A DNA stretch of 63,666 nucleotides from an uncultured Verrucomicrobiota bacterium (lineage in GTDB: Bacteria; Verrucomicrobiota; Verrucomicrobiia; Limisphaerales; JAYPEY01), in the NCBI GenBank assembly GCA_964519245.1, contig CAZFLK010000012.1, forward strand, positions 1-63,666, read 5' to 3'. Within the stretch, counting starts at the first letter, position 1; every line of letters starts with the position of its first letter. This document shows positions 6,001-54,398 of the stretch, piece by piece. A program made the position numbers and the translations under genes. Under the pieces are notes generated by a model that searched no databases, was not told the origin of the DNA, and was given only the letters and a program-made list of their open reading frames with translations.

Positions 6001-9000
6001 GTCTGGTACTACCGCGCCACCAACGCGGACGATGTCATCAATGTTGACTTCGTCACCGAGCCCGGCTTGTTCCAGGACCTGCATCTGATCACCCGTCTGA
6101 CGAACAACAACGGCAACTTCACCTTCGCTGCCCAGGTGAAGTTGAACTTCAACGCCACCGACGACGCCGGCAACCCGATCTGGAATCCGGTCGATGCCTA
6201 CACCGACTTCAGCGCATTGCGCATGCAGGCCGAAATGGGCGAACCGGTCGATTCCGGTAATTCCATGGCCGCCGCGAAACTCGAATACCAGCAACAGGAG
6301 ATGGAGAACAACCTCCTGCCGCCGGAGGGCGACTTCATCGCGATCATTGTCGACGCCCTGGGCGGAAACGATCAGATCAACGTCGGGCCTACCGTGCAGA
6401 AGACGGTCTGGGTCGACGCCGGCCCCGGCGACGACACGGTCCAGTTCACCTCGGGCAACGCAATCCTGAGCGACGTGGCCGAGCGGCCGCACCGCAACGA
6501 TATTCCTGACTTCGCCACCGCGCTCGGCGCCGCAGCCCTGATCGGCCGCGCGGACATCTCGGAATTGAAACTCGGCCTGGTCAGCGGCGACGTCGCGAAG
6601 TTCAACCTCGGGTTCAACGGTTCCAACGATGTCTTCGCCCTGAGCCTGCCCTTCGATGGGTTGAACGGTGTCGGCGACAACTCGACGTTGGCGCATCTGG
6701 TCGATGACGTGAATGCGGCGCTGACCTCGGCGGATTTGGCGACCCAGGTCAAGGCCGTCGCCATGGGCGGCCGATTGGCGATCATTCCCACGCTTGGCGG
6801 CAACGTGGTATCCATCCAGATCACGGCTAACGCCGACGACACGTCCGGCGCGCTCGACCAGTTGCAGTTCAAGAACGAGGACATCGCCGGCCAGGCGATC
6901 CTGCTGGCCATGGGCGACGCGCCGGTCAACGGCCAGATTCAGACGGACATTCAGTTCGGCGTGCGCCTGAACAACGGCGCGGCGGTGAACATCACCGTTT
7001 TGGCCAGCGCCACCAACGGTGAGGACGGCGAGGCCAACGCCTCCATTGACGACCTGATCGACGACCTCAACGCGGCCATCGACGAGGCCGGTCTGGAGAG
7101 CTCGTTGCGGGCCGGTCGCGTCGACAACCGCATCCGCCTTTACACCATTGCGCCAATCCAGAATCCGAGCGTCTCGCTGGTGATCCCTGAGAGCAACGCG
7201 ATGATCGATCAGCTCCACTTCGCCAACGGTCAGACCGCCAAGGCGATCTACGTGCTCTCGCGCAACACCAACCTGACCGGTCTGACCATGGACAGCGCTA
7301 CGGACGTGGATTACTTCGTCTTCCAGTTGGGGCATATCCCCGGTGGCGCGCCGCGCATTGAGCTGACCAGCGCCTCGCCGCTCGACGGCCTTGGTATCTC
7401 GATCTTTGACCTGAATCAGTTGGCGGCCAACGCCGCAGTCACCCCGGTCGCCGTCAGTCCGGACGGGCCGGACCTTGACGGCTCAGGCAACAACTCGATC
7501 GCCGACGCCTATCTGCTGCCGGATCTGCGCGACTTGGGGCGGATTACACATCTCAACCTGCACACCGATATGGATGAAGACTTCTTCCATTTCGAGTTGG
7601 AGGCGGACGCCGCGGCCGGCGACAAGATCAGTCTCCTCCAGGGCGGCTTTGAAGGGCTTCTGGAATTGGCCGTTCTGGACCAGGACGGCGCGGTCGTGAC
7701 CTCCGCGCAAACGACCCTTGAAGATGGGCCGGTCATCAGCCTCGCGCTCGATGCGCTGACCAAGGGGGATTACTACCTGCGGGTGAAGCAGGTCGCCGAC
7801 AATGATGGTTCCGGCGCCGTTGATACGGACGAACTGGACGACAACCTCGGCTTGGCTGGCGGCGACGCTTCAACGGCGGCCCTGGGTGTGGTCAATGCCA
7901 ACGGACCTCAGAATGCCTTTACCGTGCGGGCGACATCGAATGGAGCGCAGTTCAACGGAGTGAAGATCATCTTCGAAACCGGCATCGTCACCGCCGGCAA
8001 TGAAACGGCTTCCTACAACTCGACAACCAAGGAGTTGACGCTCTCGATTGAGGATGGAGCATCGACCGCAGCGCAGATCATTGCCGCCATCAAGACCGAC
8101 CCGATGGCGGCCGATTTCACCGCCGAACTCTATGATGTGGGCGGCGGCTATGAGCTCTTCCCGGCCGTCGGCGGCAACGGTTATACGATTCTCAACCTCT
8201 CGGGGCAGTCCAACAGCTCCATCTCCCTGAGCGGCTTGCAGGCCCACACGCCGTATCTGCTCAAGATCGATTCGCCCAACGAAGTGCCGACGATCTACAG
8301 CCTGAATTTCATCCTCGAGGAACCTGCTCAGGAAACGCAGACCATCAACATGGCCGCCACCGTCAACACCGTCCGCAAGGACGTCATCCTCGGCGGAACC
8401 GGCCATGACCGGTTGCAGGGCGGCAGTGGCGAGGATTGGATCTTCGGCGGTCCCGGGAATGACGTGATCACCGGCGGCCTCGATACCCAGAAGAGCGACC
8501 TCCTGTTCGGCGGGCCCGGTGACGACACTTTCCAGATCACCACCGACTACCTGCCAAGCCTGACCAACAACCCGGACGCCACTTTCATCCCGACAACCGT
8601 GGATCGACTGTTCGGCGGCGATGGCGACGACCGTGTCTTCTATCAGGGCGGCGACCTCGACAACCTGAGCCGTCCGATTCCGGACTTCGCCTCGATCCGC
8701 TACAACCGGATCCTGCACCGCTACGAATTTACGACGCTCCTTTGGGATACCGCCAACCAGGAATGGGTCGAGGAGACGTTGCCCGGTTCTTCGCTCGTCG
8801 CCGAGAATAGCCCGACCAGTGTGGACGGACGTCTGGATTCCAACACCACGTTCGAAATCGTCCTCGGCGGTGTGAACTACTCGGTCACCGTTCCGAAGAA
8901 CCTGGGCGACGGCGTTCTCGCGGGCGGCAATGTGGTCGATCTCGACAACGGAGTCAGCCGGACCTTCCGCCTGAGCCTCGGCGCCAACGCTCGATTGACC

Positions 9001-12000
9001 GTCACCGTCACCGGCACCGCCGCGGTGGATGACGCGGACGATTACGCCGCGCAGATCCGTAGCCAGATCGATGCCAGCGAACTGGCGGGGAGCGTCACCG
9101 TCGGATCGGTGGGCAACGCCGGCATGGCCCTCGAGTTCCGTGTGCAGGGCATCGTCGAGGCGGATGAATTGAGCGTCGGGTTGGCGCTCGGCTCCACCGC
9201 CGCGGACCTGGCGGATCTCGGCTTCAATGCCGCGGGCCAGAGCGCGCCGGTCAACAACTCCGCCGGCGATCTCGCCAAGGACATCAAGACGGCCATGCTG
9301 AAGGCGACCAATCAGGATACAACAATGATGGAGGATCTGACCGATCGCCTGGCCGTCGGATCCGACAAGGGCCGTCTGGTGTTCGTTACCAGTGAGCTTG
9401 CCAAGGATGACACACTCGCGATTGCGAGCGGTGGAGCTTTCGGCGACGGCGCGGCTCTCGGCCTGGCCGCCGGGCAAGAGGGCGTTGCGCGGCGCGTGTT
9501 CTCCCAGACCTACGCCTACTACCAAATCAACGAGGTTGAGCGCACGGTGATCGATCTGCGCTCTGGCAACGATGTGTTCCGCGGCGACGCTGAGTATGTC
9601 TTCCGCAACCAGGACGAGGAATGGGGCATCAAGTCCGGCGATGTGCAGCAGGGTGGAGTGATCTCCAATCTCGAGATTCATGGCGGTCCGGGCAACGACC
9701 GGCTGTTCGGCGGCCACTTCGATGACCTGATCTTCGGCAACGACGGCAATGACTTCGTGGCCGGCGGACCGGGCGATGACGTGATCGACGGCGGCCCCGG
9801 CAAGGATCTCCTCGCCGGCAACTCAACCTCTCAGCCGGACGACTTCGAATTTGTCACGCGCAACGCCGTCGATGGCCTGAATGACGACGTCAATTTTGCC
9901 TCCTTCCTGCCCGACCTGACTGCGGGTCTGGAAATCGACGGTCTGACCTTCCACGAGGGCGACCCGGGCGATTGGTACCTGATCCGCACACCGGAGCCGC
10001 TCAAGCAGTTGCTGGAGCCCGGCCAGGGCTGGCTGACTCAGGAAATGATCTCCATCGTGTTCGACGACGCCTTTGAGAACGACCTGTTCAACAACGGCGG
10101 CGGTGGACCGATCCTCGACGACCTTTCGAAGCTCGAGAACACCCGCTACTTCCTCTTTGCGGCCCAGGACACGGACGCCGGCGAGGCCTTGTCCGTCGTT
10201 CCGGTCGAGAAGTTCAGCGGTGTGCCGGAGTATTACCTCCTCCACGTCGTCAACCTCCGCGCACAGCAGGTCAAGGCCGTCGATGCCGGCCCGTCAAACG
10301 GACGCATTCAGGACCCGTCCAAGGCCGACGACGACACCGCGAAGTTCACCCTGATCCTGGACGGCGCCGCCCATGTGATCACCGTCGCCGACGACGCCGG
10401 GAACACCACGCTAGATGACCTCGTCGACGACGTTAATGCCGCCTTCGTCACGGCGAACATCGGCGACCGGGTCTTCGCCTACAATGAGCTTGGCAAGATC
10501 GTGATCAGCCGCGTGGACGCCGGTTCCATCTCCTTCACTGCGGATCCCGGAACGGCTGCCAATGTGCTGGGCTTCCTGCCCGTGGATACCAATGCGGGTC
10601 GCAACCCCGCGATGGGCGGCTACAAGATCGTGTTCAGTGAGGCCGTCGGCAAGACGATCGAAGTCGCGCCGGCCGCCGCCAACCTCACCATCAACTCGCA
10701 GTTCGCCGCCTACCGGCCGGTTGTCATTCCGCTCGGCGACATCAACGGCGACGGCTTCGGGGACTTCGTCGCCGGCATCAGCGACAACATATTCGGAACC
10801 GGGCCGACCCAGATCCGCATCTACCTCGGCGGCCACATTGATGAGGACTTCGACGGCGACGAGATCTTCGATGTCGGCGAGGACCTCAATGCCAATGACA
10901 AGTTCGACACGGCCAGCGCCTACTTCCTGAATAACTCGGACTTCACGCTCGCCCTGCCGGCGCCGGTCCTGCGCGAATCGGTCGGAGCCGACACCGCCAA
11001 GCTGCGCAGTTACTTCAGTGAGCCCGGCGATGTGAACGGCGACAATATCGACGATATCGTGGTGGCGGTTACCCGGATCGACGGCGGCGCCAGCGCTGCC
11101 GCCGCTGTCTACGTGTTGCACGGCCGGGCCGACGATCCCGCGACGCCGCAGCCGGATGGCTGGGCCGCCAATGTCGCCCTCGCCACTGCCGCGGATGTGA
11201 CCGTGGATGTGCCGGACGTGGCGACGGGCAGAATCGCAGCCGCAATCGTTGGCGACCTTAACGGCGACAACAAGGACGACCTCGCGGTCAGTCGCGACAA
11301 CACGCTCTATCTCAAGTCCGGAGCCTCCTTGATGGCGGCTGAGACCCTGACCGCTTGGACCGACAGCTACACACTGGGTGGCGGGACGCTGGGCGACTTT
11401 GGGGCTGTCGGTGATTTCAACGGCAACGGCAATGACGACTTTGGCGTCATCGATGAGACGACGGACCGGCTGCATGTCATCACGAACGAGGCCTTCACAG
11501 GCAATACCGTGGCGTTGGACGCCTCGCCGGCTGAGATGAGGTTCGATCACACAGCCGATCTGGACGGCTATTCCATCGTCGCGCTGGGCAACCTCAACAA
11601 GGATCTCGATACCGGTCGTCCGATCCAGGACTTCGGTGTCACCAGCCAGACCGGCTCCTTCGTTCTGTTGGGGCGGACGGTCAATAGGGCGATGGATCCG
11701 GATGACGCCATCGCCATCGAAGCAGGCGTCCAGCTCGTCAATGCGGGCGACTTCAATGACGACGGTTTCGACGACGTTGCGGCCGTCAAACTGGAGCGGA
11801 CTCCGCGACTGGACGAGAACGGCGGACAGTTCGTGCATTCCGTCGGAATCCTTTATCTCGGAACGATGACGGGCATAGATTCCGCCAGCCCGAACCTGGT
11901 CTTCGAACGTTCCCAGCCGAATTACCTGGCTGAGGCCGGAGCCTCGATCCCGGCGGGTCTGTTCGCCTTCGTCGGCGACGTGAACAACGTCCCGTCCGGC

Positions 12001-15000
12001 GTGGTTGCCACGGGTACGTTCACGCTTGCCGGCGACATGATCACTCTGACAGCGACCAATGCCGGGGTGGTTTACGAGAACGTGACCGTCGTGGTCAATC
12101 CGTCGCTCGGCTCCGGGCCCGTGACCGTGTCGATTAACAAGAGCGGCGGTCCGGCGGCCTATGTCATCACGGTCCATACCTTGATGGATGGCTCGACCAC
12201 GACCGCCGAGGTGGCGATGGCATTGGATACGCTGGCCGACTACAGCGCGACCGGCGGCGATGGCACGGCTTCCGGTATGACCATGGAGACTTTTGCAGGC
12301 GTCACCCAAACGGCGAAGTCCGGTGACGGTCATGCGGATCTGGTCCTGGCCGAGCAACTCGGCTCGACGCTGCGCGTCTATCATGGCGCGGAACTGGAGG
12401 ACTATTTCAACCCGCAGCCCACGCCGGCGTTTGTTCTGCCGCGTCTCTATCGCTTCGATCTTGCGCTGCCGGTCCTGTCGGCGCCGGACGCCAACAATTA
12501 CCAAGGCATCGACATCTCCGGGTCCAACGGCGTCAATAGCCACCCGGATGTCAATGAAGCCTTCGTGATCGAGGGCGTTGACGGCAATGAGCGCCTCGCC
12601 AACCTGATTCCGGTCGGTGACTTCAATGGCGACGACGCCGAAGACTTCCTCGTCTACGGCCGCCTGCGCGCCTATCTCTTCTTCGGTCCGTTCGAGACCA
12701 TCGGGCTGTCCGAGGTGACGGAGCGCGCGGATCACATCTTCGACCTCGCCGCCTTCGGTCGACCCGCCGAAAAGATGGGCGACATCAACGCGGATGGCGT
12801 TGCCGATCTCGCATTCGTTCGTTACGACGCCGGAACGACCACCACGACCGTCACCTATTTCTCAGGCGGTGTGCTGCACGAAGTTCCGCGCGTTGTTAAT
12901 GCGGTTGCCGATCTGGATCCGCGCTACACGCGTCAGATCGTCCTCAGCAATGCGGAAATCGACGGAGCCAACGCCGAGTTGCTCGTCCTGAACTTCCTCG
13001 GCGACATCAACCCGGCCAACAACGTCGCCCACTCCGACATCGTGATCGTCGGCGACACCGCTCGGAACGAGACCCTCTACGGCTACATCTTCAGCGGCGC
13101 CGATCTGAGCGCCGCGCCGCATGTCTACGGTCAGGACCAGGCCATGGCCATCAACTCCTCCAGTGGCGCCAAACGCGTCGATCTGGAATTGTTCACCTCG
13201 ACATTCAGCTCAGGAACAATCAACCAGAGCATTCCGAACTCCGGACAGGGTGCGGAGAACAACCGCCAGTCCGGTCTGATTCCGACCTCGACGGGCAGGG
13301 CCTATCCCTATATTTCGATCGATGGAGTCAATCCCGTCACTCAGGCCTTTGGCTTCCTGGTCAGGGCGGCGGGCGATCCCTACCAGACCACCAATACGAT
13401 GGCGGGCGCTGGAACCACCGCGATCTCAGACTATTCGACCGCTTCCACGACCGTGCCGGTTAGCGGCATTGCCGGCAAGGTCTTCGACGTGGATGTCCGG
13501 ATCCGGCTGAATCATACCTTTGACGGCGACCTGACCATTGTCCTGAGCGCGCCGAACGGCGGTCCTTCCATCACTTTGTTCAACCGCCACGGCGGCGGCG
13601 GTGACAATCTGGGAACGGGGACGGGCGCAAGCACGGTCTTTACGACCTTCGACGATGAGGCGCCGACCTACATCGGAAACGGCGTGGCCCCGTTTGCCTC
13701 AATCCCGTCCGCCTCAAAGTTCATTCCATACACCAGCCTCTCCGCTTTTGACAATTTGGACGGAGCGACGACGGCGGGGAGCGCGACGAACCCGAACGGC
13801 AACTGGACGCTGAGCATCACGGATAACGCCGGAGCCGACCAGGGCGCGCTCGTCGACTGGCAGTTGGTCGTCAAGGCGGAGCCCGCAGCGGCAGTGACAA
13901 CCAATACGCTGAATCTTGGAGCCAACGCCCGGACCGGCAACCTGACCGACGTCGATTTCCGGGTGGCGCTCTATCATCCCAACTTGGCCGATCTGAAAGC
14001 GGAGGTGGTCGTTCCTCGCACGAGTGGAATGACCACGACGGAGGTGGCAAGTTTCACCCTGTTTGACTTTGGCGATCTCGCCGGCAACTGGGTCTGGTAC
14101 AACTGGTTCGACACCGTGGGCGACTTCAGCGCGGCCGATTACCTGCCCTATTATGAATCCGTTCGACCCGTTGACAGCGCCGCCGCATGGAATACGGAGA
14201 TCGGAAAGGTCAATGCCTTTGACGCGATGTCCAACCTTGATTGGACGGGCGACTGGCAACTGAAACTTTCCAGCAAGACTGAGTCCGCCGGCTTCCTCTA
14301 CTTCTGGGAGGCTCTGGCCAAGACCGACGACACCATCAGTTCGGTCATCACGACCGATACCCTCGTGGGCGAGATCAACGATGTGGATGTCGTCCTCAAT
14401 GTCACCCACCCGGATGTCGGCGATCTGGAATTCATCCTGAACTACGATGGCAAGGACCAGGCGGGCATGCCGGCAAGCCGCACGGTCAATCTCGTCAATG
14501 GCAGCGCGAGTCGCGACGGCGCCAACTTCTCCGGCATCACCTTCAGCCAGGAGGACGGCGTCGCCCTGGAGAACAACACCCCGTTCTCCATGATCGTCAA
14601 ACCGGACTCCGGGACGCTCAATAGCCTCCGCGGCCTGGATCCGAACGGTGTCTGGACACTCGAAATCAAGAACGAGGCCGGCGATTACAGCGGCACCCTC
14701 GACAACTGGAGACTGAACATCACCACGAATCCGTCAGTGGCGCGTCTCGACGTGAATGGAGCGCCGGGCACGGTCTCGGATGTGAATGTCCGCGTGTCGC
14801 TGGATTACCCGACCCTCGCCAACCTGCGCCTTGAACTCTACTCACCCGAGGGCACGACGGTGGATCTGGTCCAGCAGGACGATCTGAGCGGCGCCAACCT
14901 GAGCAACATCGAGTTCAACGATGGAGCCTCGGCCTTGTCCGGAGGCGCAGCGCCCTACACCGGCGTCTTCTCGCCGAAGCAGTCCCTCAGCGCCTTCCAG

Positions 15001-18000
15001 GGCGAGGATGTCAATGGCGAGTGGCATTTGCGAATCTACGACGAGGTCGGCACAAGCCTCACCGGAACACTCAAGAGCTGGGATCTCGAATTCGCCTTCG
15101 CGCCCGAAGATCTGGACACGACCGCCATCGGCGACGTCAACGGCGACGGGTTGGAGGATCTCGCCTTCAGCCTCACGCGCTACGATCATCCGAATCCGAC
15201 GCCGACGGATCCGCCCACCACCGCCACGACATTCATCCTGCCCGGCCAGGAAGTCGCGGCGCCGGCCGCCCTTCAGTTGATTCGCGATGGAGGCGCGCTG
15301 GTGTCCGGAACGTCGCTCGGCGGCGGCGCCTACGCCCTCGGCGATCTGAACGGCGATGGTTTCGACGACTTTGCCTTGAGCCGCACCCGCGAGGACAACT
15401 TCCTTGCCCAAGGCGGCTTGCTGGTGTTCCTCGGAACTTCGAAGTATGGCGCCGAGGGCTCAATTGTGCGCCTGACCGACTCGGCCGCGAGCTTCAAGAT
15501 TCGTCAACTCGCCGCCGAGGCCTTTGGCGCCACGACGCTCATCGGCAATCTTTCCGCCACCGCCGGCGACTTCAACGCGGACGGTCAGATGGACCTCGTC
15601 GTGACCCAAGCCTCGGCCCTCCAGACCACGGACTACTCCAATGAACTCAATCCGTCGGTCGTCCTCAGTCAGCAGGAACGCGGCGCGGCCTACATCTTCT
15701 TCTCCATCATGAGCAAGGGCAGCGATCTCACGCTCGCCGACGCCGGCTTCATCGTTGAGGGCGCCGATGAGCACGACCAGCTCGGCGTCCTGTCGCCGGC
15801 GGCCGGCGTTGATCTCGATGGCGACCGCGTCCATGACCTGATCGTCGGCGCCGAATACTCCGAAGGCTTCGTCAGCGGCAATGTCAAGGTGGACGCCGGT
15901 CGCTTACATGTGATGTATGGCGACCACGCGTTGTTCGAGATTCCGCAGGCTTACGCGATCCTTACCAACCGCACGATCAGCGGCAGCGGCGACTTCCTGG
16001 TCAACCTCGGAACCGGCCGGCCTTCGATCTTCCAGGACTCCGACCTCGACGGCGACGGCTTCCCGGATGACACGCGTTATGCGCTGATGTCCGGCGAAAC
16101 CGAACGTTGGTATCGCTTCACCACCCTCGGTGATGGCACGGCCGGCGATTACATCCGTCTCGATCCCGTGTTCGTGGACCGCGAGACCAGGGCTCTGGCG
16201 CCAGTCGACTCTGGCATGTTGGCGGGCGAGGACCCGACCATCACCCTGCTGCCCGACGGCGAAACGCTGGAGATTCGCAGCGCCTTGGGATTGGCCTACA
16301 CCTACTACGAATTCGAGGGCGCGGCGCGGCAGGTGACCTCCTATTATTGGAGTTACGACACCTTCCAGAGTCCGCCGCGCTGGGTCGCGGTGCCCTACAC
16401 CTACACGACAATCGATCTGCCGACGACTCTCGACGCCGCCTTCGCGGCCGGAACGGAGGTCAAGGCGGGGGCCGCGACGCAGGTCGATCTCTCGGTTGCC
16501 CAGCGAAGCAACCAATATGCCGTCCGCTACGAAGGCTACCTCCAGATCACGACGGGCGGCGCATACGACTTCACGCTGAACTCCGACGACGGCAGTCGAC
16601 TCTACCTCGATCTCGACAAAGACGGGACCTTCCAAGCGAACGAGTTGATCGTGAACAATGATGGGATACAGGCGGCCTTGGAGGTGACCTCGGCGTCGCA
16701 CATGCTGGATGCGGACACGGCTTACAAGGTCAAGGTCGAGTACTTCCAGGTTGGCGGCGATGCGGTGTTCGAGTTCACCTACAACGGCCCGGACAACGCC
16801 GCGATCACGGACAAGACCGTCCCGTCCAGCGCCTTTGTCAACACCTTCGCCCAGCGCGTCGGCATCGCCGAATTCGATCTCTCGCCGTATCTTCAGTATC
16901 TCGACGATCCGGAGGCTCTGGAGAGCGTGAAACTGTTCCTGAAGTCCGCGGCCTCGGCGCAGGACTCGCTGCCCACGAATCTGGTCGATATCGCTGTCGT
17001 CGGTTCACAGCTCTTCCTTGTCGGCAACGACACGGCCGCCGCCCAGCCGTATCAGATGTATGTCTCTGACGGAACGCCTTCGGGCACACGCCTGATCGGT
17101 GGGCTGTCCGACCAGCCGAAGCAGTTGGCCGGCGACGGCGACTTTGCCTACTTCGTCATAAAGGACCGCGAGATCTGGCGGACGGGCGGCTCCAGCTTCA
17201 GCCCGATCGACACCTTGGTGAACGGCGACGCCGCAAACCTCACGGGCATTGGCAACAGCCTCTACCTGGTCGAGGTCGTCGCCGGCGACGACAACGACCG
17301 GCTCTGGTTCACCAGCGGCGTCGGCATGCAGCAGGTCCCCACACCGGCCGGAGCCGGCTCGCCGGTCGTCGATCCCGCCGAGTTGACCAAGGGCGCCAAC
17401 GATACGCTTTATTTCGTCGCGGATCATGACGGTGGAACGGCGCTTTTCCGGGCCGATGAGCTCGACGTGACTTTCGTGCGAGGCGACGTCGCCTCCGGCG
17501 CCGACCGTCCGCGCGGGTTGTTCGCCTTCGATGGCGACGTCTATTATGTCGGTGAATCGCAGAGTGAGACCGTCCTGTTCAAGATCTCGGGGACGAGTTC
17601 GGGCTCGATCGGAACCATTGGAGGCTCCGACTTCTACGAGTTCCACGAGGTCGCCATGGCCGGCAATGATCCCAAGGCGGTCTACATCACCGCTTGGAGC
17701 GGGACTCCCGAGAGTCGGACCTCGGTTGGACTCTATCGGTTGACCGCGTCGGATGCCCTGGAGCAGGTCTCCTTCAGCGGCGGCGGCGCGATCCAGACCT
17801 TCACCGATGTCCAAGTCTACAAGAACAAGGTCTATCTCGCGACGACGACCACCGACACCGGCAGCGAGCTGTTCAGGGTCGACGGGCTCAACGCCGCGGT
17901 GGTCAAGAATATCAGGGCTGGCGCGGACGGCTCCAACCCGGCCGAGCTGACCGTGTTCGACAGCCTGCTCTACTTCACCGCCACTTCTGACGGTGCGACG

Positions 18001-24000: not shown

Positions 24001-27000
24001 GCCTTGTTTGAGACCGGCATGGACGAGACCGCTACTTCCGCGCTTGTCGGAACGCCCTCCTACTCGAAACCCGTCTTCAGCGGCGCGGTGACCATGCTGA
24101 CGGCTACCCTGGCCGACGCCGCGAACTTCGAGGCCGTGGGCGACCGGCTCTACTTCACGCAGGGCATTCCGTCCTCGAGTCTGTTGTATTACACCGACGG
24201 CGGCGCGGTCATGCAGACCTCGGCGGCGGACATGTTCCCCGGCGCGCAGCCTGGCTCGGGCGCCGCCAACATCGGCGGTTTCGTCTACTACCTGGTTGAC
24301 AACGGCGCTTCGAACCGCGTCGAGCTCTGGCGCACGAAACTTGACGCCGCCGCCAACCAGGACGGCACATCGGGCACGCTGGTCAAGGAGCTTCCGGTGA
24401 ACACCGATACGCCCGATCTGCTCGGCGCCGCCAACGGCCTGCTCTACTTCACGGTCAATCAGGGCGCCTCGGTCTTCCTCTGGCAGACCGATGGAACGGC
24501 CGCGGGAACGCGCCTGATCGTTGGGCTGCCCGGGGCGGCGGACCTCCTTTCGGTCGACGATCAGTTCAAGATCCGCCTCGTGCACGATCCCAGTCTCATG
24601 CACGTCTCCGCGACCGTGGACACCAATGTGGTTGCGACTTTCGCCAATGGAACGCTGACCGTGGTCGCGAATATCGACACGGTGGAGACCCAGGATATCG
24701 CGGCCGCGGTGAATTCGCTCTTCGGATTCACCGTTGATCTGGACTCGAATGGAACGTTGCCGAGGGACGGGGTGACGACCGGGCTGCTGACCGGCGGCGA
24801 AGACGCGGTCTACTCCTCCATCGCCGTCTCGCCCGCGGGCGCCGACAACGATTTCGTCATTCGCGCCGTCGTCGACGGTCCGGATTGGGACGGCGCCCTG
24901 CTCGACTTCGTCGATGATGACAATCTGGCGGCGGGAGAAGCGGTTGCGGATCACGTGGTGGTCACCGACCAGAACGGCGCCGTTGTCAGTCGCACGATTG
25001 TTGTCCGCTTCAATGATACGACGACCGCTTCCGCAATCGTCGCCGCGGTGAACGATCTGGACGATTGGAACGCCGCGCTCGTCACGGACGAGAGCGGCGC
25101 GGGAACAGTGGCGATCGCGGATGAAGGGATGCTCACGCGGACCGCGGGCGTGCGCGGCGTGGCCTCCACCGCGAGGCTCGTGATCCCCGGCGCGAACAAT
25201 GACCTCTTGTTTAGCAGCGACCGTCTGGTCGGCGGCATGGCTGACAACGTGGTCAGGGTGAACATCATCGACACCGGCGCGATCTCCACCGGCTTGGCAA
25301 CGGCCAAGTATGACGACACGAACAAGATCCTGACGGTTGATATTCAGGGCGGCGTGACAACGGCCAATGAGGTCGTGGCGACGCTGTTTGCCGTGCCTGG
25401 TTTCTCCGCGGAACTCGACAAATACGACGAGGTGGAGAACGACGGCAAAGGAGCTGTCCGGATGGCGAATCTCGTGCCGGAGGTGGGAAGCTGGACGCTC
25501 GGCGACGCCCATACGGTCACAATCACCCGCGCCACGTTCTACTTCTCCGTCAACAATGGCGGCACGGCCGAATTGTGGCGTGCGATCGAGGACACCGCCC
25601 AGCGGGTCACGACCTCGCCGTCCGGAGCTGTCAGCCATCTCACCAACGTCAATGGCGACCTCTACTTCGTAGGCAACAACGCGAAGGCTCCGAGCCTCTG
25701 GCGCTCCTCGACGGATGCGCTCGGCAACATCACCTACAGTCAGGTCAGCTCGCTGCCGGGAGCGGTCGACAAGGTCTTGGGCGTTGGCGAGCGGATCTAC
25801 CTGGTGATCAACCGGCCGACCCCGGAACGGCCGATGAATTCGGATCTTTGGGTGAGTTATGTCGCAGCGGACGGCTCCCAGCTCACGCGCTACCTCCGCA
25901 GCTTTGGCGGGCCCGTCAATGAGTTGGCGGCCATGGAAACCACCACGTATGTGACCATCGGCAGCCGCACGACCGAACGCACCGCGCGGATCGACGGCGT
26001 GCTGTTCCTGTCGGCCCAGGACAGCGCCGGCGGATCCCAACTGTGGCGAATTCTCGACAACACCGAGCAATACACCGCCAAACTCCTGCTGGCCGACAGC
26101 TCGCCGACCGGCATCGGAAACCTGACCGTCGTCGACAACACCCTCTATGCCCAGGTGGGCAGTTCCGAGATCCAGCGCGTCACCGCCACCAGTGAGGTTG
26201 CCACCCAGTTCCATTCCGGCACGGCGGTCGATCAACTGACCGCCTCCGGCGGCGCGCTCTATTACCGCACCGGCGGCTCGGAACTCCGCCGCGCGGGCGT
26301 GCTGAACGGAAACCTCTTCTACAACATCGACACTTGGGCTCCGTTCGCCGGCGCCGCCCACTCGCAGTCCGATCGCGATTCCATCACGGGCGGCGAAGGC
26401 GCCGATATTATCATCGGCAATGGCGACCGCGACTACCTGTACGGCGGCAGCGGCGAAGACTTCTTCATTGGAGAACCCTATGAAATTCGCGATCGCGGAG
26501 TTGGCGAGAACAGGGTGGATCCGAATCAGTCTGAATTCTCAGTGATACAGCCGCGGCCGATCGATCCGGAGGTCTACATCTTCGATGCAGGGCTGCGCGC
26601 GGCTTTGGCGCGGGCGCTGGATATCGCGACCACCACCGGCTTCGACGGCAACCTCGTTACCCATGGCCGACTCTTCGCCAGCGAGTTGTTCATCCTCACG
26701 CAGTTGAACGCCGCCAACCTCGGGATCGGCGACCTACGCGGACTGCGCTTCGCCAGCAACCTCGAAACCTTGAACCTTAGCGGGAATCCCGTCACCAACC
26801 TGGATGAGCTGATCCCGGCCTTGGATGCCGTGACCGGCGCCTCGGTCGGAATGAAGAACCTGCGCCACCTGGGAATTGATCAATATCGCGCGAACGATCC
26901 GACCAGCGGCGGCTCTGTGGGAACCAAGGCGTCAACCTCCATCTCCTTTGGCGACGGCGTCTTAATCGACGTGACCGCGGCCGCAAACGGAACCGACTAC

Positions 27001-30000
27001 AACGGCGCCACAATCGTGATCCTCCCGGATCTCACCACGGGCATGATCTCGGCGACCCAGACGGGGTCGGCCGGGGATTACGTGATTACCATCCGCGTTT
27101 ACGCCGACGGTTCGTCGACAACCAAGCAGGTGGCCGACGCAATCGACGACTTGGGCGACTGGGACGCCGCGGGTGGCTCCATGACCCAGAAGGTTGTTGG
27201 CGGTAATATCTCCAGGCTCGCCGACGGCCAGATCCGCGCCACCTTGCGCGCCCTGAGCCTCGACAACACCGCCTTCGCCAGCACGGATTACTTCAATATT
27301 CTTACCGGGCTGAACCGCCTGATGTTCCTCAGTGTGAACGACGTTACGCCAGCGATTGGCGGCAACCGTCTTGGCAACCAGATCGGCGGGGGTAAGACCG
27401 TGACATCGTCCGACGGAACGGAAACCGCACTGCTCGCCAACACCGTCATTCTTAGCGCCGGCAACAACGCCGCCTATCGTCTGGACTCCAACGGCGCCGC
27501 CGATGTGGGTGAACAGTTCCAGATCGAGAAGCTCATGAACGGCGACTATCAGGTGACCTTCCTGATCGACGGCGTCACGCAGAAGGTCGAGGAATTCTCG
27601 GGAGCGGCCGCTTTCTACTTCGACGGCGGCGGGGGAGACGATCGACTCATCATCGATCCCAGCGTCGATGTGCCGGTGATCGCCTTCGGCGGCGATGGCA
27701 ATGATTACCTGATCGGATCGAGTGACGCCTCGGTCAACAACAAACTGGATGGCGGCACCGGCGACGATACGCTTGTCAGCACGGCCGCCGCCGACACCTT
27801 GGTTGGCGGCACGGGCAACGACACCTTCATCCTGAAGGCCGGTTGGGGCGACGACACCATCGTGGAACTGCCGGACGAGGGCGACGACACCATCAATCTC
27901 GCCGATCCGAGCCTCGCCAACCTGCAGGTTACGGTGACCTTGACCGCCAACATCACGATCACCGACGGCCTGAACACCCTCAGTCACGCAGGCGCGCGCA
28001 TCGAGAACTTCATTGCCGATCCCGCCGCGGCGGCCCTGCATCGCTTCAACGTCAACCTGCCCGGCTCCGCGTTGACGCTCCGGCCGGACTACCTGACGCC
28101 CGGATCCCGGACGCCGATACAGTATGTCGGATTTGACGCCCTGGAGATCGTGGCGATTGACGGGCAGGTGACCGTTGATGAGCGACTCGAGTTTGCCGGC
28201 GACTTTGTGATCCGCACCGGCAACCTGCAGCTCAATGATTCCATTCGCGCGGCGGGCCTGCTGCTGGATCTCTCACAGATCCTCCGCGTTGTTCAGCCGG
28301 AGTCGCTCGACCATGGATCGGGCAGCCCGATCGTGCTCGATGCCGACAACCTGAGAATCCTGCATGACGCCGGGGTCGGTCAACCGGATCATCCGGTGGT
28401 GATCGACAGCGATGTCTTAGAAGTCATAACCGATGGGACGAATGCCAATGCGGCCGGCGTCTATCTGGTTGAATTGGACGGAACGTCAATCGGTAACGTG
28501 GACATCGACGGCGATATCGCGGGCTACGACCAAGCCGAAACCGATTCCGGCATTCGCACCCTGGGTGGCGACGTTTCCATCCTGAACCTCGGCGGCCAGT
28601 TGGCGGTGGCGAACACCGGCGCTGTCGGCATCGAAGCGGGTGGCGGTGACATCACCCTCACGACTCAACTCATCGATATCCAGGCGCCGTTGCGCAGTTG
28701 GTATCTCTGGAACGAGGGGGCAACCGAGGGCAACGACCTCAACCGTGGCACGCTCCTGATCCAGCCGGTTGATGAGCTCTCGAAGATCGGACTGGCCGAC
28801 GACGCCTACACCGCCCTGAGCGATCAGGACCTCGTGCAGGACAGCATCCTGCACCTCAAGGCATCCGAACTCGATTACATCATCGACGGCTTTGCCGGAA
28901 GCCTGACCGGTGAGTTCGATGGCATCACCATCGGCCGCAGCGATGGCCGCCACAAGGTCGAGATCGGAACCTACGCGTTCCGCGACTCCGTGACCATCCG
29001 CGCGCCGAAGTCGCCCGGCGGCATGAATGTGGTCGGCACGTTCAGCACGATCGCCGACGCGCGTATCCGGTTCATCGGGGCCTTCGCCACCACCGTGCTG
29101 GACGCCGATGTCTATACCAACGGCGACGACAAGCTGTTCAACGACAGCGTCCGTGTCGGCGCCGGCAAGGATGTCGTGGTCAGCACCGGTCCTTTGGGCG
29201 GTGACATCACCATCGAGGGACGTCTGGACGGCACAGCCGACGGCAGCGGTTTGAAGGAAAGTCTCACCATCATCGCCGGCTCCGGCAACCTGGTGATCAA
29301 GGGCGATATCGGCGGCGTTGAACCGCTGGAGAACCTGACCATCATCTCCGCCGGCGAGGTCGCCATCCACGGCAGCGTCAACGTGCGCGGCAAGTTCCGG
29401 ATCATCCGGACCACCGGCGTCACCGATTTGGGCGTCCCGTTGACCGTCGGCGGCCCCGTCGGCGATGTGACCGTGGGCGAACTTGATTTCGCCACCGAGT
29501 CCAACATCGTTTTCGAGGGTAATGTGACCCAGACGGGAACCAATGCGATGGTTCTCGAAACCACTGGCGTCAACGGTTCCGTCACCTTCAAGCAGAACCT
29601 GACCACGGCCGGCGACCTGCGGGTGACGACCGCCGCCAATGTCCTGTTCAGCGGCACGGCCAATATTGGCGGCGCGATGATTCAGAACGCCGGAACCACC
29701 ACGGTGTTCAAGGGCGCGGTCACCGCGGATTCCTACGACATCACCACCGCCGATCTGAGCTTCGACTCCACCGTTGCCGTCGCCGCAGGCAACAACATCC
29801 TGCTTACCGCCAATGAGATCAACTTCAAGGGCGGCGTCGGATCGGTGACCAGCGCTGACATGACCAGCGTCATCACCCTCCGGCCGAATTCACACGTGAT
29901 TCCGATCAACCTCGGTACCGCCGCCGGCGTTAGCTCCAACTCGCTGGACCTCAGCAAGGCCGATCTCGACGCGATTCATTCCAACTTCGCCGAGGTGCGG

Positions 30001-33000
30001 ATTGGCTGGAACGAATTGACCACGGTGAGCTCCGGCGGCGCGGACAACGCCAAGGCCGCGGTAGAGATCGTCTCGCCAGGCGTCCTCAACGACCTGATCT
30101 TCACTGCGCGCGTCGACGGCGCGGCCTTCAACGGCGTCATCGTCCAGATCTTCGATGACGGAACCTTCACGACAAACGTCGCCGAGGCGCGCTACTTTGA
30201 CGCCACCAAGATCCTGGCCATCAATGTCAGCCTGACGAACACGACAGCGGCGACCGTTTTGGATGCAGTGAACAACCACACCAAAATGAACCTCACCGCC
30301 ACGGAATACACCGCCGCGACGCGGCCGTTCACGGTCTCGGGTGGAGCCGACTATGGGGCGGGAACCGGCGACTTTGTCACGGTGATCAGCGATGTGACCG
30401 CGGGCGGCTCCGATGCGGCCAAGGCGACCGGTGTCCTGGAGATTTCCGGATTGATAGGCGGGGCTGTCAATGACCTGAACTTGACCGCGGACGCAAACGG
30501 CGCGGCCTCGAACGGAACGCTCTTCAAGCTGGTCAACGCAAATGTGGCCATGCCGACCGCCATGGAGGCCGGCGGCGTGATCACGGTCACCGCACGGTTG
30601 TCCGACTACGGCGCCGACCTCGCCCATGGCATCGCCGACATCATCACGGCGATCGACACGACTTCCTTCACCGCGCTCGCGGCGGCGACTGATCCGGATC
30701 TGAGCGGAACCCTCGAGATCGGCGAAGGAGCCATCGGCAGCAAGGCCGTCTTCCATGCCAAGAGCATCGAAGTCACCGGCAACTTCTCGGTGGCGGACGA
30801 GGCGACCCTCAACGCGATTTACGGCGATGTCGAAACGCCGGGATTGGCCGTCCTTACGACGACGGATCTCAACGTGAACGCCGCCGGCTCCATTCGACTG
30901 AACACCGCGGTCGCAGACATCGACGCCCATGCCTCGGCCAACGGCAATATCGTCATCAGCGAGGCCGATTCGATCGACGTCACACGACTCCTTGCGGTGA
31001 ATGGCGATATCTCCCTCTTCACTGCGGCCGGCAATATCACGCTGACCGCGGCCGGCAGCGGCATCACGGCGCTGGGCAGCGATGTGATTCTGCAAGCGGC
31101 GGACTCCGTGCAGCAGGACAACGTCATCGTCAGCAGTTCCGGTTCGATCGGCGTTGAGGCGGTTGCCGGATCGGTCGCCATGGGGGCCGGAACATCGACA
31201 ACCACCGGGGGCGGCAACATCCGCTACGCTGCGGCGCAGGATCTCAGCCTCACCACGCTTGATGCGGGCGCCGGCAAGGTCAGCCTGATCGCAACGTCCG
31301 GTTCGGTGAATGATGTGAACGGCGCCACACTGAACATCACCGCAGCCGCACTGCGCTTCGAAGTTGGGGCCGCTCTCGCCTCGGGCGCAGATCCGCTGGA
31401 GATCACGGTCGACATGCTGGCGGGCTCCGCGGCGACGGGCGCCTTCATCAACGAGGCGGACGGACTTGAGATCACGGACGTGTCGGTTGTGACGACCTTC
31501 CTGAACAGCAACCTCGTCATGACCACGCAAACCGACGACACGTTGTCCGGAGTTGCCACGACGAACGATGGTCCGGTGATCGTCGAGGTCGCCATGGGCG
31601 ATCTGACCGTGAGTTCGCCGGTTGCGGCGCACGGCTCCGGCAACGTCCGCCTTGCCGCGCTGGCCGGTGGTTCCACCGCGACGGTCAATGCGGCGGTCGG
31701 TTCCGGGGCGGGCCACATCACCCTGTTGGCCCAGATGAATATCAGCCTGGGCGCCGGCGGCTCGCTCATGACCACCGGCGGCACGATCGATGTCGAGGCC
31801 GAAGAGGCTGGCGGCACGATTTCAATGACCAACGGCGCGGTGACCCGCACGGACGGCGGCGTGATCCGCTATGCCGCGGACGGCGATATCTCGATCGCGG
31901 GCCTCGAAGCTGGCGGCGGTTCGATCAGCGTGGTGTCCACGAATGGCGCAATCCTCGACAACGGCGACGGCGCGGTCGATCTGGTGGCGGACAACCTGCG
32001 CCTTGTGTCGGGTGATTCGATCGGCCTGCCGGGCAACGCGCTGGACACCCGAGTGACGACGTTCGCCGCATCGGCCGGCGATGGCGGCCTGTTCCTCTCC
32101 GAGGCGGATGGTCTGGTTGTTGATGAAGTTTCCGCGATCACCGTGAACCGGGTTGCGGCCGACGCAACGACCCCGGTCGGCATGCAGAAAACGGATGACG
32201 CACTCAGTGACCTGGTCGCGACCGGAGCTGGTCATCTCACGGTGTCGACCCTGAACGGATCGCTCACCATCAACGATGGCAACACCGACCTCATGGGCGC
32301 CACCGGCATCGGCGTCCAGTCCGCGAATGGGAATATCTTGCTCCGCGCCGCGACCTCCGAGGGCAATGACAAGGACATCACCTTGAACGCTGCGGTGAAA
32401 TCAGCCGCCGGCAGCATCAGCGTCATCGCCAACAACAGTGTGACGATCGAGGCTGACGGCGACATCCAGACGGCGGGAGTCGGAACGGTCGAAGTCGAGG
32501 CGACGAATGGCGGCGTGACCATGAACGGCGATGCGATGGGATCGGACGCCGCTTCCATCTCGACGGCCAACCAGAACATCCGCGTCAAGGCGGCCAGCGA
32601 CATCCTGCTCGGCATGGTCGACGCCGGATCTGGAGAGGTCAGCTTGGAAGCCCTTTCCGGAACGATAACCGATAACGGCGACATCGCGCTTGATGTGATT
32701 GCCGGTTCCGCCCGACTCAAGGCGTCGATCGGCATTGGAGCGAGCGGCAATCCGTTGGAGATCGAAACCGGAACATTGGCGGCTTCAGCCGGATTCGGCG
32801 GCGTCTATCTCACGGAACAGACAGCCGTGACGATCGGCGAGGTGGGAATCGTTGCCGCGAATCGGGTGAACGCCATGGGCGCCGTCGTCGCCGTCAATGA
32901 CGCCGCGATTCTGGAAGGCCTGAAGACTGTTGCCTCGAACGGTCGCATCGTGCTGGTGACTGTGGACGGTTCCATATCGGTGGTTCGCACAGTGCAGTCA

Positions 33001-36000
33001 CACGGAACGGGCAACATCCTGCTCAAAGCCGGAACCGCCGGCGCGAACGACAAGGATATTGATCTGAACGCCCCGGTGATGTCCTCCGGCGGCCGCATCA
33101 CGATTCTGGCGAACAATGACGTTGCACAATCGATCGCCATGGTCGGCGCGACGCAGGGCGATATCACGACCCCGGGCGGTGGCATCGATGTCGAGGCGAC
33201 ACACGGCTCCATCACGATGACGAACGGCGTGAAGACCCAAGCCGATGGCGGAGTGATCCGCTACAAGGCGGCCGGTGATGTTTCCATCGGCGGGTTGCTC
33301 GCTGCGGGCGGTTCGGTGAGCGTTATTGCCACAACCGGCGACATCCTGGATCTGGGCGATGCGCACAAGGATATTGTCGCCAACGAGTCCCGCCTGGTCG
33401 CTGGCGCTGGCATTGGCGAAAGCGACGATCATCTGGAGATCGCCGTCACGACCGTCGCGGCGCAGGCCGCCGGCGATGGCATTTACTTGCTGGACGACGA
33501 CGCGATCACCGTCGGCGCCGTGGGGCCGGTCGCTTTCCATCGGGTGGCGGCCACCGGCGCGGCGTCCGTGCAGACGGATGCCCAACTGACCGGCGCGGGC
33601 ACAACTGCGGGCAACGGCAACATCGTGGTCGGCACGGTTGCCGGCGGCGTGACCGTGTCCCAGAGCGTCGTGGCGCACGGAGCCGGGAACATTCTGCTGC
33701 GGGCCGTCGGCGCGACTTCGGATATCGCCCTGACCGCTCCCGTTTCGACCTCGACCGGCAGCATTTCAGTGATCGCCGATCGCAATGTGCGCCAAGAGGT
33801 GAAAGGCGATCTGACGGTCGGCGGAACCGGAACCATCGACGTCGAGGCGGCGGGCGGCACGATCGTGATGGTCGACGACCAGGCCGCCATGAATCCGGAC
33901 AGCGCCACCGCGACGACCGCGGGCGGCTCCATCCTCTACGTCGCGGAAGGCGATATTACGCTCGGAGCTTTGAACGTCGGCGCGACGGGAGCCATCCAGA
34001 TCGATTCCGCAAGCGGGTCGGTCCTGGACGCGGGAGACACTGAAGTCGACGTCACGGCAATGACTGTTCGCTTTACCGCAGGAAACGGCGTCGGGACAGG
34101 CGATGCATTGGATCTGGCTGTGGATGTGTTGGCGGCGAGCGCCGGAAACGGCGGGGTCTTCCTGCTCGACCGGGATGCGGTGACCGTTGGTTCGGTCGCA
34201 GGAGCGCAGGTGAGCCGGGTCGGGGGCATGGGGATCGCCAGCGATCATCCGGTCGCAGCGGCGGCCGACCTCGTCGGTGTCATGACCGTCGCTGTGGCGC
34301 CGGGCGTGGGCGTGTTCGTCTCGGCCGTTGATGGCGTCACAGCCAACGGTGCGGCGGCGGCCAATGCCACACTTGAACTCCTTTCCACCGGAGCCATCAA
34401 TGACATCCTGTTCGAAGCGCGGGAGACCGGCGTGGAATGGAACGGCGCCGAGATCCGGATCGAGGACGATGCGGCGTTGAGCGGCGATGTTGCGGAAGTC
34501 CGGTTCTATGACGAAGCCAATCCGCTCGATCCGATGGATGCGCGGAAGATCCTCGTCATCAAAGTCAGCTTCAACGAAACCACCGCGGCCACGGTCATCG
34601 ACGCGGTGAATGCTCACACGTTGAAGAATGGCGCCGCGGTCGAATTCACGCCGGCTGAGCGTCCGTTCACGGCCTCTCCGGGCGGCGACTTTGGCGCTGT
34701 CGGCGGCCACGTCGCCGTGCGGACGACCAATGGTTCCCTTACGGTCAGTGAGGCCGTCAGTGGCGCGGGCGCCAGCAACATCCTGCTCGAAGCCGGGACC
34801 ACGGCCGCCAATGACAAGGACGTTGTCCTCGGCGCCGCGGTCACATCCGGCGGCGGCAGCGTGACCATCCTGGCCAATCACGACATTCTGCAGGCCGCGG
34901 CCGCCGACATCACGACCATGGGCGACGGCACGATCGAGATGGAAGCGACCCACGGGTCCATCACCATGAGCGACGCCGCGGCGGACAGCGCCTTCGCGAC
35001 CACGGCAGGCGGCAACATTCGCCTCCTCGCCGGAATGGATGTCAATCTGGGCGGCGTCGACGCGTCCGGCGGCGACGTCAGTGTTGTTGCGGCGGGCGGT
35101 TCGATCACGGACAACGGCGATTCGGCGGTGGATGTGACGGCTGCTTCGTTGAGGCTGGAGGCGGCCAACGGCATCGGGACGGGCGCCGGCCATCTGGACG
35201 TTGCCGTTGAGAGGATTGCCGCCCAGGCGGCCGGCGGCGGCGTGTTTGTCACCGAGGCCGATGGCGTGACCGTGGATTCCATCCCGGGTGTCGCGGTCCA
35301 TCGCGTGGCGTCGCTGGGTTCGACTTCGACGGTGACGAACGATCAGGCCTTGGCCGGCTTGAGGACTACGCAGGGCAGCGGGGACATCGTTCTGGCGACC
35401 TTGGCCGGCGATCTCGCCGTCGTCCAACCAGTGACCGCGCATGGCGCCGGAAATATCCGCGTCGATGCCTTCAACGATCTGGCCGTTCAGGCTGCCATCG
35501 GGAGCACGAGCGGAAACATCTCACTCAGCGCCGGCGGCAGCCTGACGCAGACATCCGCCGGCGTCATCGCCACCGGCGACGGCACGATTGATGTTCAGGC
35601 GACGACCGGTTCGATCGCTATGAGCGCCGGCGCTGTCGCGGTGACCTTGAACCGCAACATCCGCTACCAGGCGGGAACGGATGTCAGCCTTGGCCTGCTC
35701 AACGCTGGCTCCGGGAACGTGGCGGTGATCGCCGGCGGATCCATCAGCGACAACGATGCGGAGGCCTTGAACGTATCGGGCGCCGAAGTCCGGTTGGAGG
35801 CCGCCGCCGGAATCGGAACGGGCTCCAACGCGATCGATGTCGCCGCTGGAACCCTCGCCGTCGCGGGCGGCGCGGACGGTGTCTTCCTGAGCGAAGCCGA
35901 TGCCCTGACGGTCGGTGAAGTGGCGGATGTCCGCATCTCTCGCGTGCAACTGGATGGGTCGGATGTCCTCACACCGGTGGTTGCAGGACCGAATCTGGCG

Positions 36001-54294: not shown

Positions 54295-54398
54295 ACATGT
54301 CGATGAATTTCAGTTTTATCGACATATATCGTTGATCTGTCGTCCTCATCGACATATGTTGCAAACACGTCGATAGAATTGATTTTTTTAAACATGTC
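54295..54398 (+). promoter_or_regulatory. Putative operator array (ATCGACAT x4) upstream of fic
   Basis: ATGTCGAT 54297-54304, ATCGACAT 54318-54325, ATCGACAT 54348-54355 and ACGTCGAT 54367-54374 in an AT-rich intergenic region. Confidence 0.55.

Follow-up and report, generated by a model that had tools for sequence, protein, structure and literature searches.

The growth of giant flagellins by stepwise duplication and insertion has been described (PMC6248924), and in the flagellin of Geovibrio thiophilus (PDB 9AU6) domain D5 is a duplicate of D4 inserted in a D4 loop (PMC11532411). On a broader scale, natural domain inserts surveyed in ECOD (A1-B-A2 arrangements) are compact, 50-200 amino acids (aa) long, with close termini and versatile host and insert roles, and they can be nested (PMC13114784). 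For the giant genes of Omnitrophota, elongation by domain duplication has been proposed in a preprint (10.1101/2023.11.21.568195), which in its own data reports no proteins above 30,000 aa in Planctomycetes-Verrucomicrobia-Chlamydiae (PVC) phyla other than Omnitrophota. Here we analyse a window of 63,666 nucleotides, positions 1 to 63,666 of contig CAZFLK010000012.1 (GenBank assembly GCA_964519245.1) from an uncultured Verrucomicrobiota bacterium. Most of it belongs to one giant open reading frame (ORF) for a surface protein of ~31,000 residues, in which a small domain, hereafter the module, occurs about 14 times.

Giant flagellins offer a flagellar context for such a domain, whereas the protein studied here is non-flagellar and its genome yielded no flagellin. 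The ECOD survey is static; in our locus the same sites are occupied in some relatives and empty in others, the inserts have sources within the same gene, and their family lies outside Pfam and NCBIfam. The giant proteins of Omnitrophota are likewise very large, repetitive, rich in beta-helices and predicted to be at the surface, but they differ in phylum and in domain content. Domain insertion as such is well known; the novelty here lies in a family without a name, together with gains and losses that can be read from orthologs.

Orthologous giant ORFs are present in relatives of the source genome, all genomes compared being metagenome bins (numbered with a G below). Their presence/absence patterns show true domain insertion at three sites, in three folds: a beta-solenoid, a leucine-rich repeat (LRR) and an FG-GAP propeller. 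By sequence comparison, the inserted copies class as intragenic paralogs. We propose, with a probability of roughly 0.75 for the explanation as a whole, that the module is a self-contained alpha/beta domain that has been copied and pasted within the gene into loops of the giant surface protein. An earlier sequence-only reading of this DNA had claimed insertion into at least four unrelated folds; insertion is shown in the three just named, and is not supported for the PPC-type domain and the ELWxxDGT blades that it had counted.

We built a first hidden Markov model (HMM) from seven of the copies named in that reading, which align and with which further copies were recovered; the alignment A1 made thereafter comprises 12 copies and the profile A5 40 sequences. 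Searching the genome with A1 returned 12 full copies in the giant ORF, one of them the inner member of a nested pair, and the N-terminal half of the split outer copy of that pair; A5 adds two weak partial units (aa 7067-7095 and aa 8187-8250). In a leave-one-out test, where the tested copy and its closest paralog were both removed and 200 shuffles were made per copy, all 12 copies were recovered at E-values of 1e-6 to 3e-18, each outscoring all 200 of its own shuffles. The similarity among the copies thus exceeds chance. Eight of the nine loci it listed are significant (7879-8142, 18334-18621, 18661-19272, 20668-20985, 24814-25098, 25165-25458, 30055-30348 and 34363-34683). The ninth, 21080-21290, reduces to a weak C-terminal half at aa 7067-7095, with an independent E-value (iE) of 0.0017 under A5 and no match under A1 at E<=1e-3. 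Four full copies had been missed (12007-12279, 21334-21612, 26938-27207 and 30439-30714). The proposed size of ~100-140 aa suits the inserts with their linkers (96-137 aa) and exceeds that of the core (85-107 aa). The features concerned are as follows.

1..47133, + strand: giant ORF, one stop-free frame with 15,710 codons in the window, open at its 5' end
7879..8142, + strand: module copy aa 2627-2714, after a PPC/collagen-binding-type sandwich; present in G000, G003, G004 and G034
11989..12321, + strand: FG-GAP insert of 111 aa (aa 3997-4107; core 4003-4093), inside a DxNxDGxxD loop
18334..18621, + strand: module copy aa 6112-6207, first unit of a tandem tract that follows an ELWxxDGT blade region
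18661..19272, + strand: nested pair, outer copy aa 6221-6258 (HMM positions 1-39) and aa 6384-6424 (HMM positions 41-84), inner copy aa 6286-6373
20668..20985, + strand: module copy aa 6890-6995, within the tandem tract
21199..21285, + strand: weak partial unit aa 7067-7095, C-terminal half only (iE 0.0017)
21334..21612, + strand: module copy aa 7112-7203, closest paralog of the FG-GAP insert (60% identity)
24559..24750, + strand: weak partial unit aa 8187-8250 (iE 1e-4), directly before the pair of copies 8272 and 8389
24814..25098, + strand: module copy aa 8272-8366, between ELWxxDGT-type sequences
25165..25458, + strand: module copy aa 8389-8486, in tandem with copy 8272
26917..27204, + strand: LRR insert of 96 aa (aa 8973-9068; core 8980-9068), in a variable loop of a leucine-rich repeat
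30055..30348, + strand: module copy aa 10019-10116, bordering the solenoid region on its N-terminal side; found in every ortholog examined
30439..30714, + strand: divergent module copy aa 10147-10238, in tandem with copy 10019
31063..38679, + strand: beta-solenoid array, aa 10355-12893, one partial and ten full units of ~222 aa each
34294..34704, + strand: solenoid insert of ~137 aa (aa 11432-11568), made of a 23-aa linker, module 11455-11561 and a tail, between units 5 and 6

The 222-aa units of the solenoid array tile with gaps of 1-11 aa, and the sole exception is a gap of 138 aa that holds copy 11455; the lengthening of one repeat by a module, noticed earlier on the DNA, is thereby exact. 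The flanks of the insert abut in a neighbouring unit. One partial and ten full units make up the array in all four genomes that cover it (G000, G003, G004 and G034), with a spacing from unit 5 to unit 6 of 3 aa in G004 and G034 against 138 aa in G000 and G003, and the junction alignment is clean. Only G000 and G003 carry the insert; six further orthologs, spread over five families, lack it, and in G152, G252, G070 and G177 the tandem pair ahead of the array is not followed by any module. In the tree, the two inserted copies group with the orthologs of copy 10019 (support 100/99), which lies ~1,400 aa upstream and shares with the insert 47% protein identity and ~60% identical DNA columns. A 9-aa loop extension is common to the insert and to the copy-10019 orthologs of G004 and G034, and is lost from copy 10019 of G000. 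Judged from these relationships, copy 10019 represents the source lineage of the solenoid insert.

We modelled the region around this insert (model 2, aa 11206-11790), with a predicted local distance difference test score (pLDDT) of 85.8 and a predicted template modelling score (pTM) of 0.79. Both solenoid units reach a pLDDT of ~95 and the insert is poorly predicted. Fold matches follow one continuous beta-helix across the insert, with 284-329 aligned residues over model positions ~4-582; in the model, the solenoid fold is thus predicted to close around a looped-out insert.

At the LRR site, flank mapping finds copy 8980 in G000, G003, G002 and G004, while in G034 the flanks abut. The alignment puts the insert of ~96 aa into the variable loop of a leucine-rich repeat, and an LRR_4 match (E 1.3e-6) lies just upstream. 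The empty site of the G034 type is matched contiguously in four of the five genomes queried (G070, G177, G252 and G152), and altogether the insert is absent from five orthologs (these four and G034) in four other families. Its confinement to the genus of G000-G004, with the site empty elsewhere, marks it as a gain within that genus.

Copy 4003 splits the calcium-loop motif of the FG-GAP site, which reads 'GDVNN[111 aa]GDGHADLV' in G000 and G003; the empty loop reads 'GDVNGDGHNDV' in G034 and 'GDVNGDGLVDV' in G070. A probe for the empty site, matched in 11 of 301 genomes in all, is contiguous in G177, G070, G176, G004, G252 and G153, and finds its downstream half only in G000, G003 and G152. 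In the last of these a module occupies the very position that it has in G000 and G003, and the 10-aa left linker is shared too. In G004 and G252 the loop is 5-6 aa longer than the canonical one. These longer loops may be deletion scars, in which case a single old gain would have been followed by two losses; alternatively, the module may have been gained twice independently or been transferred. A folded domain held in a loop of an FG-GAP beta-propeller, and projecting from it, is familiar from the integrin alpha I (von Willebrand A) domain. That domain has a different fold and belongs to a eukaryotic protein, whereas here the insert splits the DxNxDGxxD loop itself and its presence varies among relatives.

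The geometry of this insert, identical in G000/G003 and in G152 of another family and absent in G004, is what one would expect had homologous recombination or gene conversion moved insert-bearing segments between genomes or between paralogous repeats. Copy 4003 is also nearer to copy 7112 of its own genome (60% identity) than to the copy of G152 at the FG-GAP site (46%), as conversion would give. However, the flanks of G152 are no closer to G000 than expected (49-62% identity, compared with 54-73% for G004), exchange leaves the first appearance of any insert unexplained, and the solenoid and LRR patterns fit vertical descent. We consider exchange an unlikely explanation for the inserts.

Comparing G000 with G003, the ratio of nonsynonymous to synonymous substitution rates (dN/dS) is 0.05-0.16 for the inserted copies and 0.03-0.30 for their flanks, so that the inserted copies are maintained by purifying selection. 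The same figures bear on the suspicion of mis-assembly that a highly repetitive gene naturally raises, all the more as the source genome is in 403 contigs and the ORF is divided over two of them. Against it, the inserts differ by substitutions at these ratios, the same in-frame inserts recur in independently assembled genomes (all three sites in G000 and G003, the LRR site in G002 and G004), and G152, with its FG-GAP insert, is a single-contig genome. An assembly artefact is extremely improbable.

Not every copy is an insert. A PPC/collagen-binding-type sandwich (aa ~2525-2598) precedes copy 2627, and its Pfam model is complete there (profile 1-69 of 70). Insertion into this domain had been claimed; in a model of aa 2515-2728 (model 1, pLDDT 79.6) the segment after the module is a low-confidence coil and no host strand returns. 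Reading the hairpin from the residues themselves (GDYYLRVKQ ... GYELF, against TPYLLKIDSPNEVPTIYSLNF in the neighbour) is not borne out by this model, and we rejected it. A sequence search of the PDB with the host segment was uninformative, returning EF-hand proteins at E 1.4-1.8. In G034, the PPC site (protein aa ~3277-3445) has one extra tandem module copy and a D/G/N-rich non-module insert of ~115 aa in the turn between strands 4 and 5 of the module, which suggests that the module can act as a host too. As a side observation, the stretch linking the PPC-like domain to the module (7798-7833, aa 2600-2611) reads DNDGSGAVDTDE. By eye it fits the EF-hand calcium-loop pattern, with weak statistics (Pfam EF-hand_5, E 0.06).

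The copies at aa 6112-7203, which had been placed among ELWxxDGT blades, instead form a tandem tract between two blade regions. Copies 8272 and 8389 sit between ELWxxDGT-type sequences and may interrupt a blade; an iterative blade HMM stalled at two blades. Similarly, the copy reported at 30060-30350 as lying inside the beta-helix repeats is located at the N-terminal edge of the solenoid, in tandem with copy 10147. In place of aa 6112-7203, G004 (aa 6905-7536), G034 (aa 6697-7338) and G252 (aa 2622-3445) have six to eight head-to-tail module copies, in segments that cannot be aligned between relatives; such copy-rich, unalignable tracts point to rapid turnover by tandem duplication.

These arrangements, namely the tandem tract between ELWxxDGT regions, the pair 10019/10147 at the solenoid edge and the complete PPC model followed by low-confidence coil, are those of ordinary domains set like beads on a string, with nothing inserted into any host fold. 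Taken as an account of all the copies, such a view is very unlikely, as it is already refuted for three sites: the host is uninterrupted in module-less orthologs at the FG-GAP calcium loop, the LRR and the solenoid coils, and a continuous beta-helix spans the insert in model 2.

The tract also contains repeats of another kind. Four units of ~100 aa ending in '...LTITD' form a second repeat family at 19318-20640 (aa ~6440-6880), without a Pfam match. A related unit stands among ELWxxDGT-type sequences at 23665-23961 (aa 7889-7987; E 3e-8 against aa 6642-6736). This family may be the other insertion family of the sequence-only reading. A Flagellin_IN-like nature of the entire tract was considered and abandoned, since the ~100-aa units of aa 6425-6889 and the short variants gave no match.

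The nested pair, noticed earlier at 18670-19320, is indeed a split outer copy around an inner copy, the latter matching HMM positions 13-95, and so an instance of the module nested in a module. The same half/full/half layout is present in two flagellin-family members (P0020 and P0066) and resembles that of domains D4 and D5 of G. thiophilus. Being common to all of these, it is taken as an inherited architecture and not a local event. D4 and D5 are described as DUF992-like beta-sandwiches, whereas the module has a helix.

Neither Pfam nor NCBIfam yielded a meaningful match to single copies at E<=10. To the eye, the 'TTAxxVxxAIN' helix of the module resembles the Flagellin_IN motif (PF07196), which the Pfam scan does not confirm: no PF07196 match was obtained at E<=10 in the ten stretches scanned (eight full copies, the nested pair and one reduced copy). 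Three of the 33 Pfam-scanned family members do contain PF07196 (P0025, P0029 and P0066), where it does not overlap the module copies. By sequence, the best PDB matches had E 0.19 with A1 and E 0.03 with A5; the latter, a hairpin of OspA, was judged a chance match. Solved flagellins, 9AU6 included, match the module-bearing flagellin P0029 at its termini only.

Among 1.84 billion representative proteins, the profile search found 702 at E<=1e-3, of which 292 reach 1e-10 and 55 reach 1e-30; a single protein can hold as many as 26 copies. Pfam assigned Flagellin_N to 18 of the 33 members scanned (12 of them also Flagellin_C), FliD_N and FliD_C to one FliD, and no flagellar family to the remaining 14. 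Across the top 150 matches, local terminus HMMs recognized a flagellin-type N-terminus in 58, a FliD-type one in 8 and neither in 84. In the flagellin- and FliD-type proteins the module copies are internal, between the conserved N- and C-terminal regions, so that the family is found between the termini of giant flagellins and FliD caps, the kind of protein to which G. thiophilus D4/D5 and the duplicated 'DE region' of Oceanospirillales belong. The suggested resemblance to flagellin accessory domains is thus supported, the family being shared with flagellar filament proteins. The accompanying comparison with phage tail sheaths gained no support: the best PHROGs tail-sheath match had E 0.82, in one of 12 copies, and a viral fold library gave nothing at E<=0.001 and no sheath among the 50 matches listed, with a query model that also contains the host domain.

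The module therefore belongs to an unnamed family whose other members form the outer part of giant flagellin-family and FliD proteins and also occur, many times over, in large surface proteins of a non-flagellar kind. Ten of the matches were looked up by public name, and these names are generic ('beta strand repeat-containing protein', 'hypothetical protein'), with one 'FlgL'. The source genome, whose completeness by markers is 100%, gave no Flagellin_N or FliD_C match, although controls were detected. Its other module-bearing ORFs resemble surface proteins with signal peptides. Two of them, adjoining open frames of 961 and 698 aa with a short masked or gapped stretch of X between them (contig C9:13892-18916, - strand), could together make up a single larger surface protein that bears a signal peptide. 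Within the collection of papers searched, no description of the module family in non-flagellar giant proteins was found.

In model 1 the module has the order strand1-strand2-strand3-strand4-strand5-helix-strand6. Mean-field covariation, computed on 622 distinct module copies with 25 bootstraps, agrees with this topology: strands 3 and 5 run in parallel, strand 4 pairs with strand 5 in a hairpin, and the helix lies against strands 5 and 2. Pair 4-83, a contact between the N-terminal and the C-terminal strand, has rank 10 of 3,828, and 19 of 25 bootstraps keep it among the top 45, which suggests that the termini of the module are adjacent. In fold searches with model 1 the host domain (residues 1-85) dominated the match lists, which thus say nothing for or against a known fold of the module.

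We can now outline how the copies may have spread. A segment of ~300-400 nucleotides encoding one copy would occasionally be duplicated, the second copy entering another part of the gene in frame, most likely through illegitimate recombination or template switching and without any mobility function of the module itself. Such a paste would survive where it lands in an exposed loop or turn, since the module, with its termini side by side, would leave the host fold free to close around it; the new copy would then be held by purifying selection, with later deletion possible. Such a mechanism fits the published rule that natural inserts are compact and have close termini (PMC13114784); at 85-107 aa the module is within the size range given there. 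The recombination step and the surface exposure of the module are inferred, and by analogy with flagellar outer domains its role would be exposed binding or spacing. Copies have been gained within the gene family and have probably also been lost.

The earlier idea of an intragenic mobile domain stands as far as a paralogous source in the same gene is concerned; most copies are stable one-to-one orthologs, and neither mobility machinery nor target duplication accompanies them. Neither Pfam, NCBIfam nor PHROGs families match the module copies. The DNA junctions of the inserts show no target-site duplication and no convincing microhomology; an Ala-Val codon pair flanks the solenoid insert in G000 and G003, which we judge not significant at such divergence. 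New in-frame sites, and nothing beyond them, would speak for the module being a selfish element able to move by itself, for example an intein, a homing element or what is left of a transposon. The missing database matches and flanking duplications, the retention of the reading frame under purifying selection and the use of the module as an outer domain of flagellin-family proteins all argue the other way, leaving this with a negligible chance of being correct.

Several observations weigh against copy-and-paste into loops. Inserts are the minority among the copies, several of which are plain tandem domains, and model 1 does not support the hairpin at the PPC site. The adjacency of the termini comes from covariation, not from coordinates, and the 4-83 contact is less stable (19/25 bootstraps) than the core contacts (25/25). 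The module itself has a pLDDT of 50-72 in model 2, and its linker stays below 50. With only ~60% of DNA columns shared by paralog and insert, and junctions that bear no signature, the mechanism is a proposal. At the solenoid, an approximately unbiased (AU) test for an older origin of the insert gives p 0.17 and does not reject it, and the timing of the gain on the G000/G003 branch hence rests on parsimony. The FG-GAP site is patchy, with an insert in G152 of another family and none in G004 of the same genus as G000, and at least two events are needed; there, AU tests on the groupings give p 0.46 both ways and make no choice, either of copies 4003 and 7112 may be the derived one, and the scars are an interpretation of the longer loops.

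The AU results are compatible with an old origin, and could accordingly be taken to mean that all inserts are ancient and that repeated precise deletions only, with no gains in these lineages, made the present patchiness. The identical FG-GAP position in G152 and G000/G003 would suit this, and so would the 5-6 extra residues of the G004 and G252 loops, were they scars. Nevertheless, it would take many independent exact deletions, each restoring the canonical host sequence, and the solenoid insert is nested within the clade of copy 10019 (100/99); we hold deletion alone to be quite unlikely. Of a similarly low standing is a conjecture in which intragenic copy-and-paste of domain-coding segments is recurrent, prefers certain sites and targets loops, for instance by template switching in the replication of a long repetitive gene. 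If it were true, the filling of the same FG-GAP loop in distant lineages would reflect site preference and not shared descent, and an insertable flagellar-type domain would serve as combinatorial surface decoration.

Copy-and-paste within the gene remains our preferred reading. Domain insertion is common in static surveys and seldom visible as a process; one gene here shows both states and so serves as an experiment of nature on the tolerance of different sites to insertion and on the growth of giant surface proteins. A family of 702 representative proteins without a Pfam or NCBIfam name links the outer surface of giant flagellins and FliD to non-flagellar giant proteins, and its occurrence in a genome where no flagellin was found bears on the origin of flagellar outer domains. 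The module is also a candidate natural 'plug-in' scaffold for protein engineering by loop insertion.

The giant ORF continues beyond the window. Contig C11 (C11:60691-66393) terminates in an open frame of 15,341 aa and joins window positions 1-255; the join with the window contig (C12) is bridged by contiguous sequence of the G003 ortholog, used as a probe, with ~2 residues missing between the contigs. The combined C11+C12 frame of ~31,050 aa is an upper bound, the start codon not having been located. Pfam and NCBIfam name RTX nonapeptides, FG-GAP, proprotein-convertase P domains, PA14, ELWxxDGT repeats and LRR in it; the remainder, including the array of 222-aa solenoid units, has no family name. 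In the single-contig genome G152 (G152:C1 ~998,000-1,038,000) the orthologous gene consists of two open frames of 20,890 and 6,802 aa, possibly because the gene is truly split, or else through a frameshift or an error in sequencing.

No type I secretion genes lie within the window, whose downstream part holds no export-system gene. What follows the giant ORF on its 3' side is a Fic-family gene (54379-55479, + strand), a WD40/PQQ-type beta-propeller protein (57231-59612, - strand) and an ECF-type sigma factor (60136-60702, + strand).

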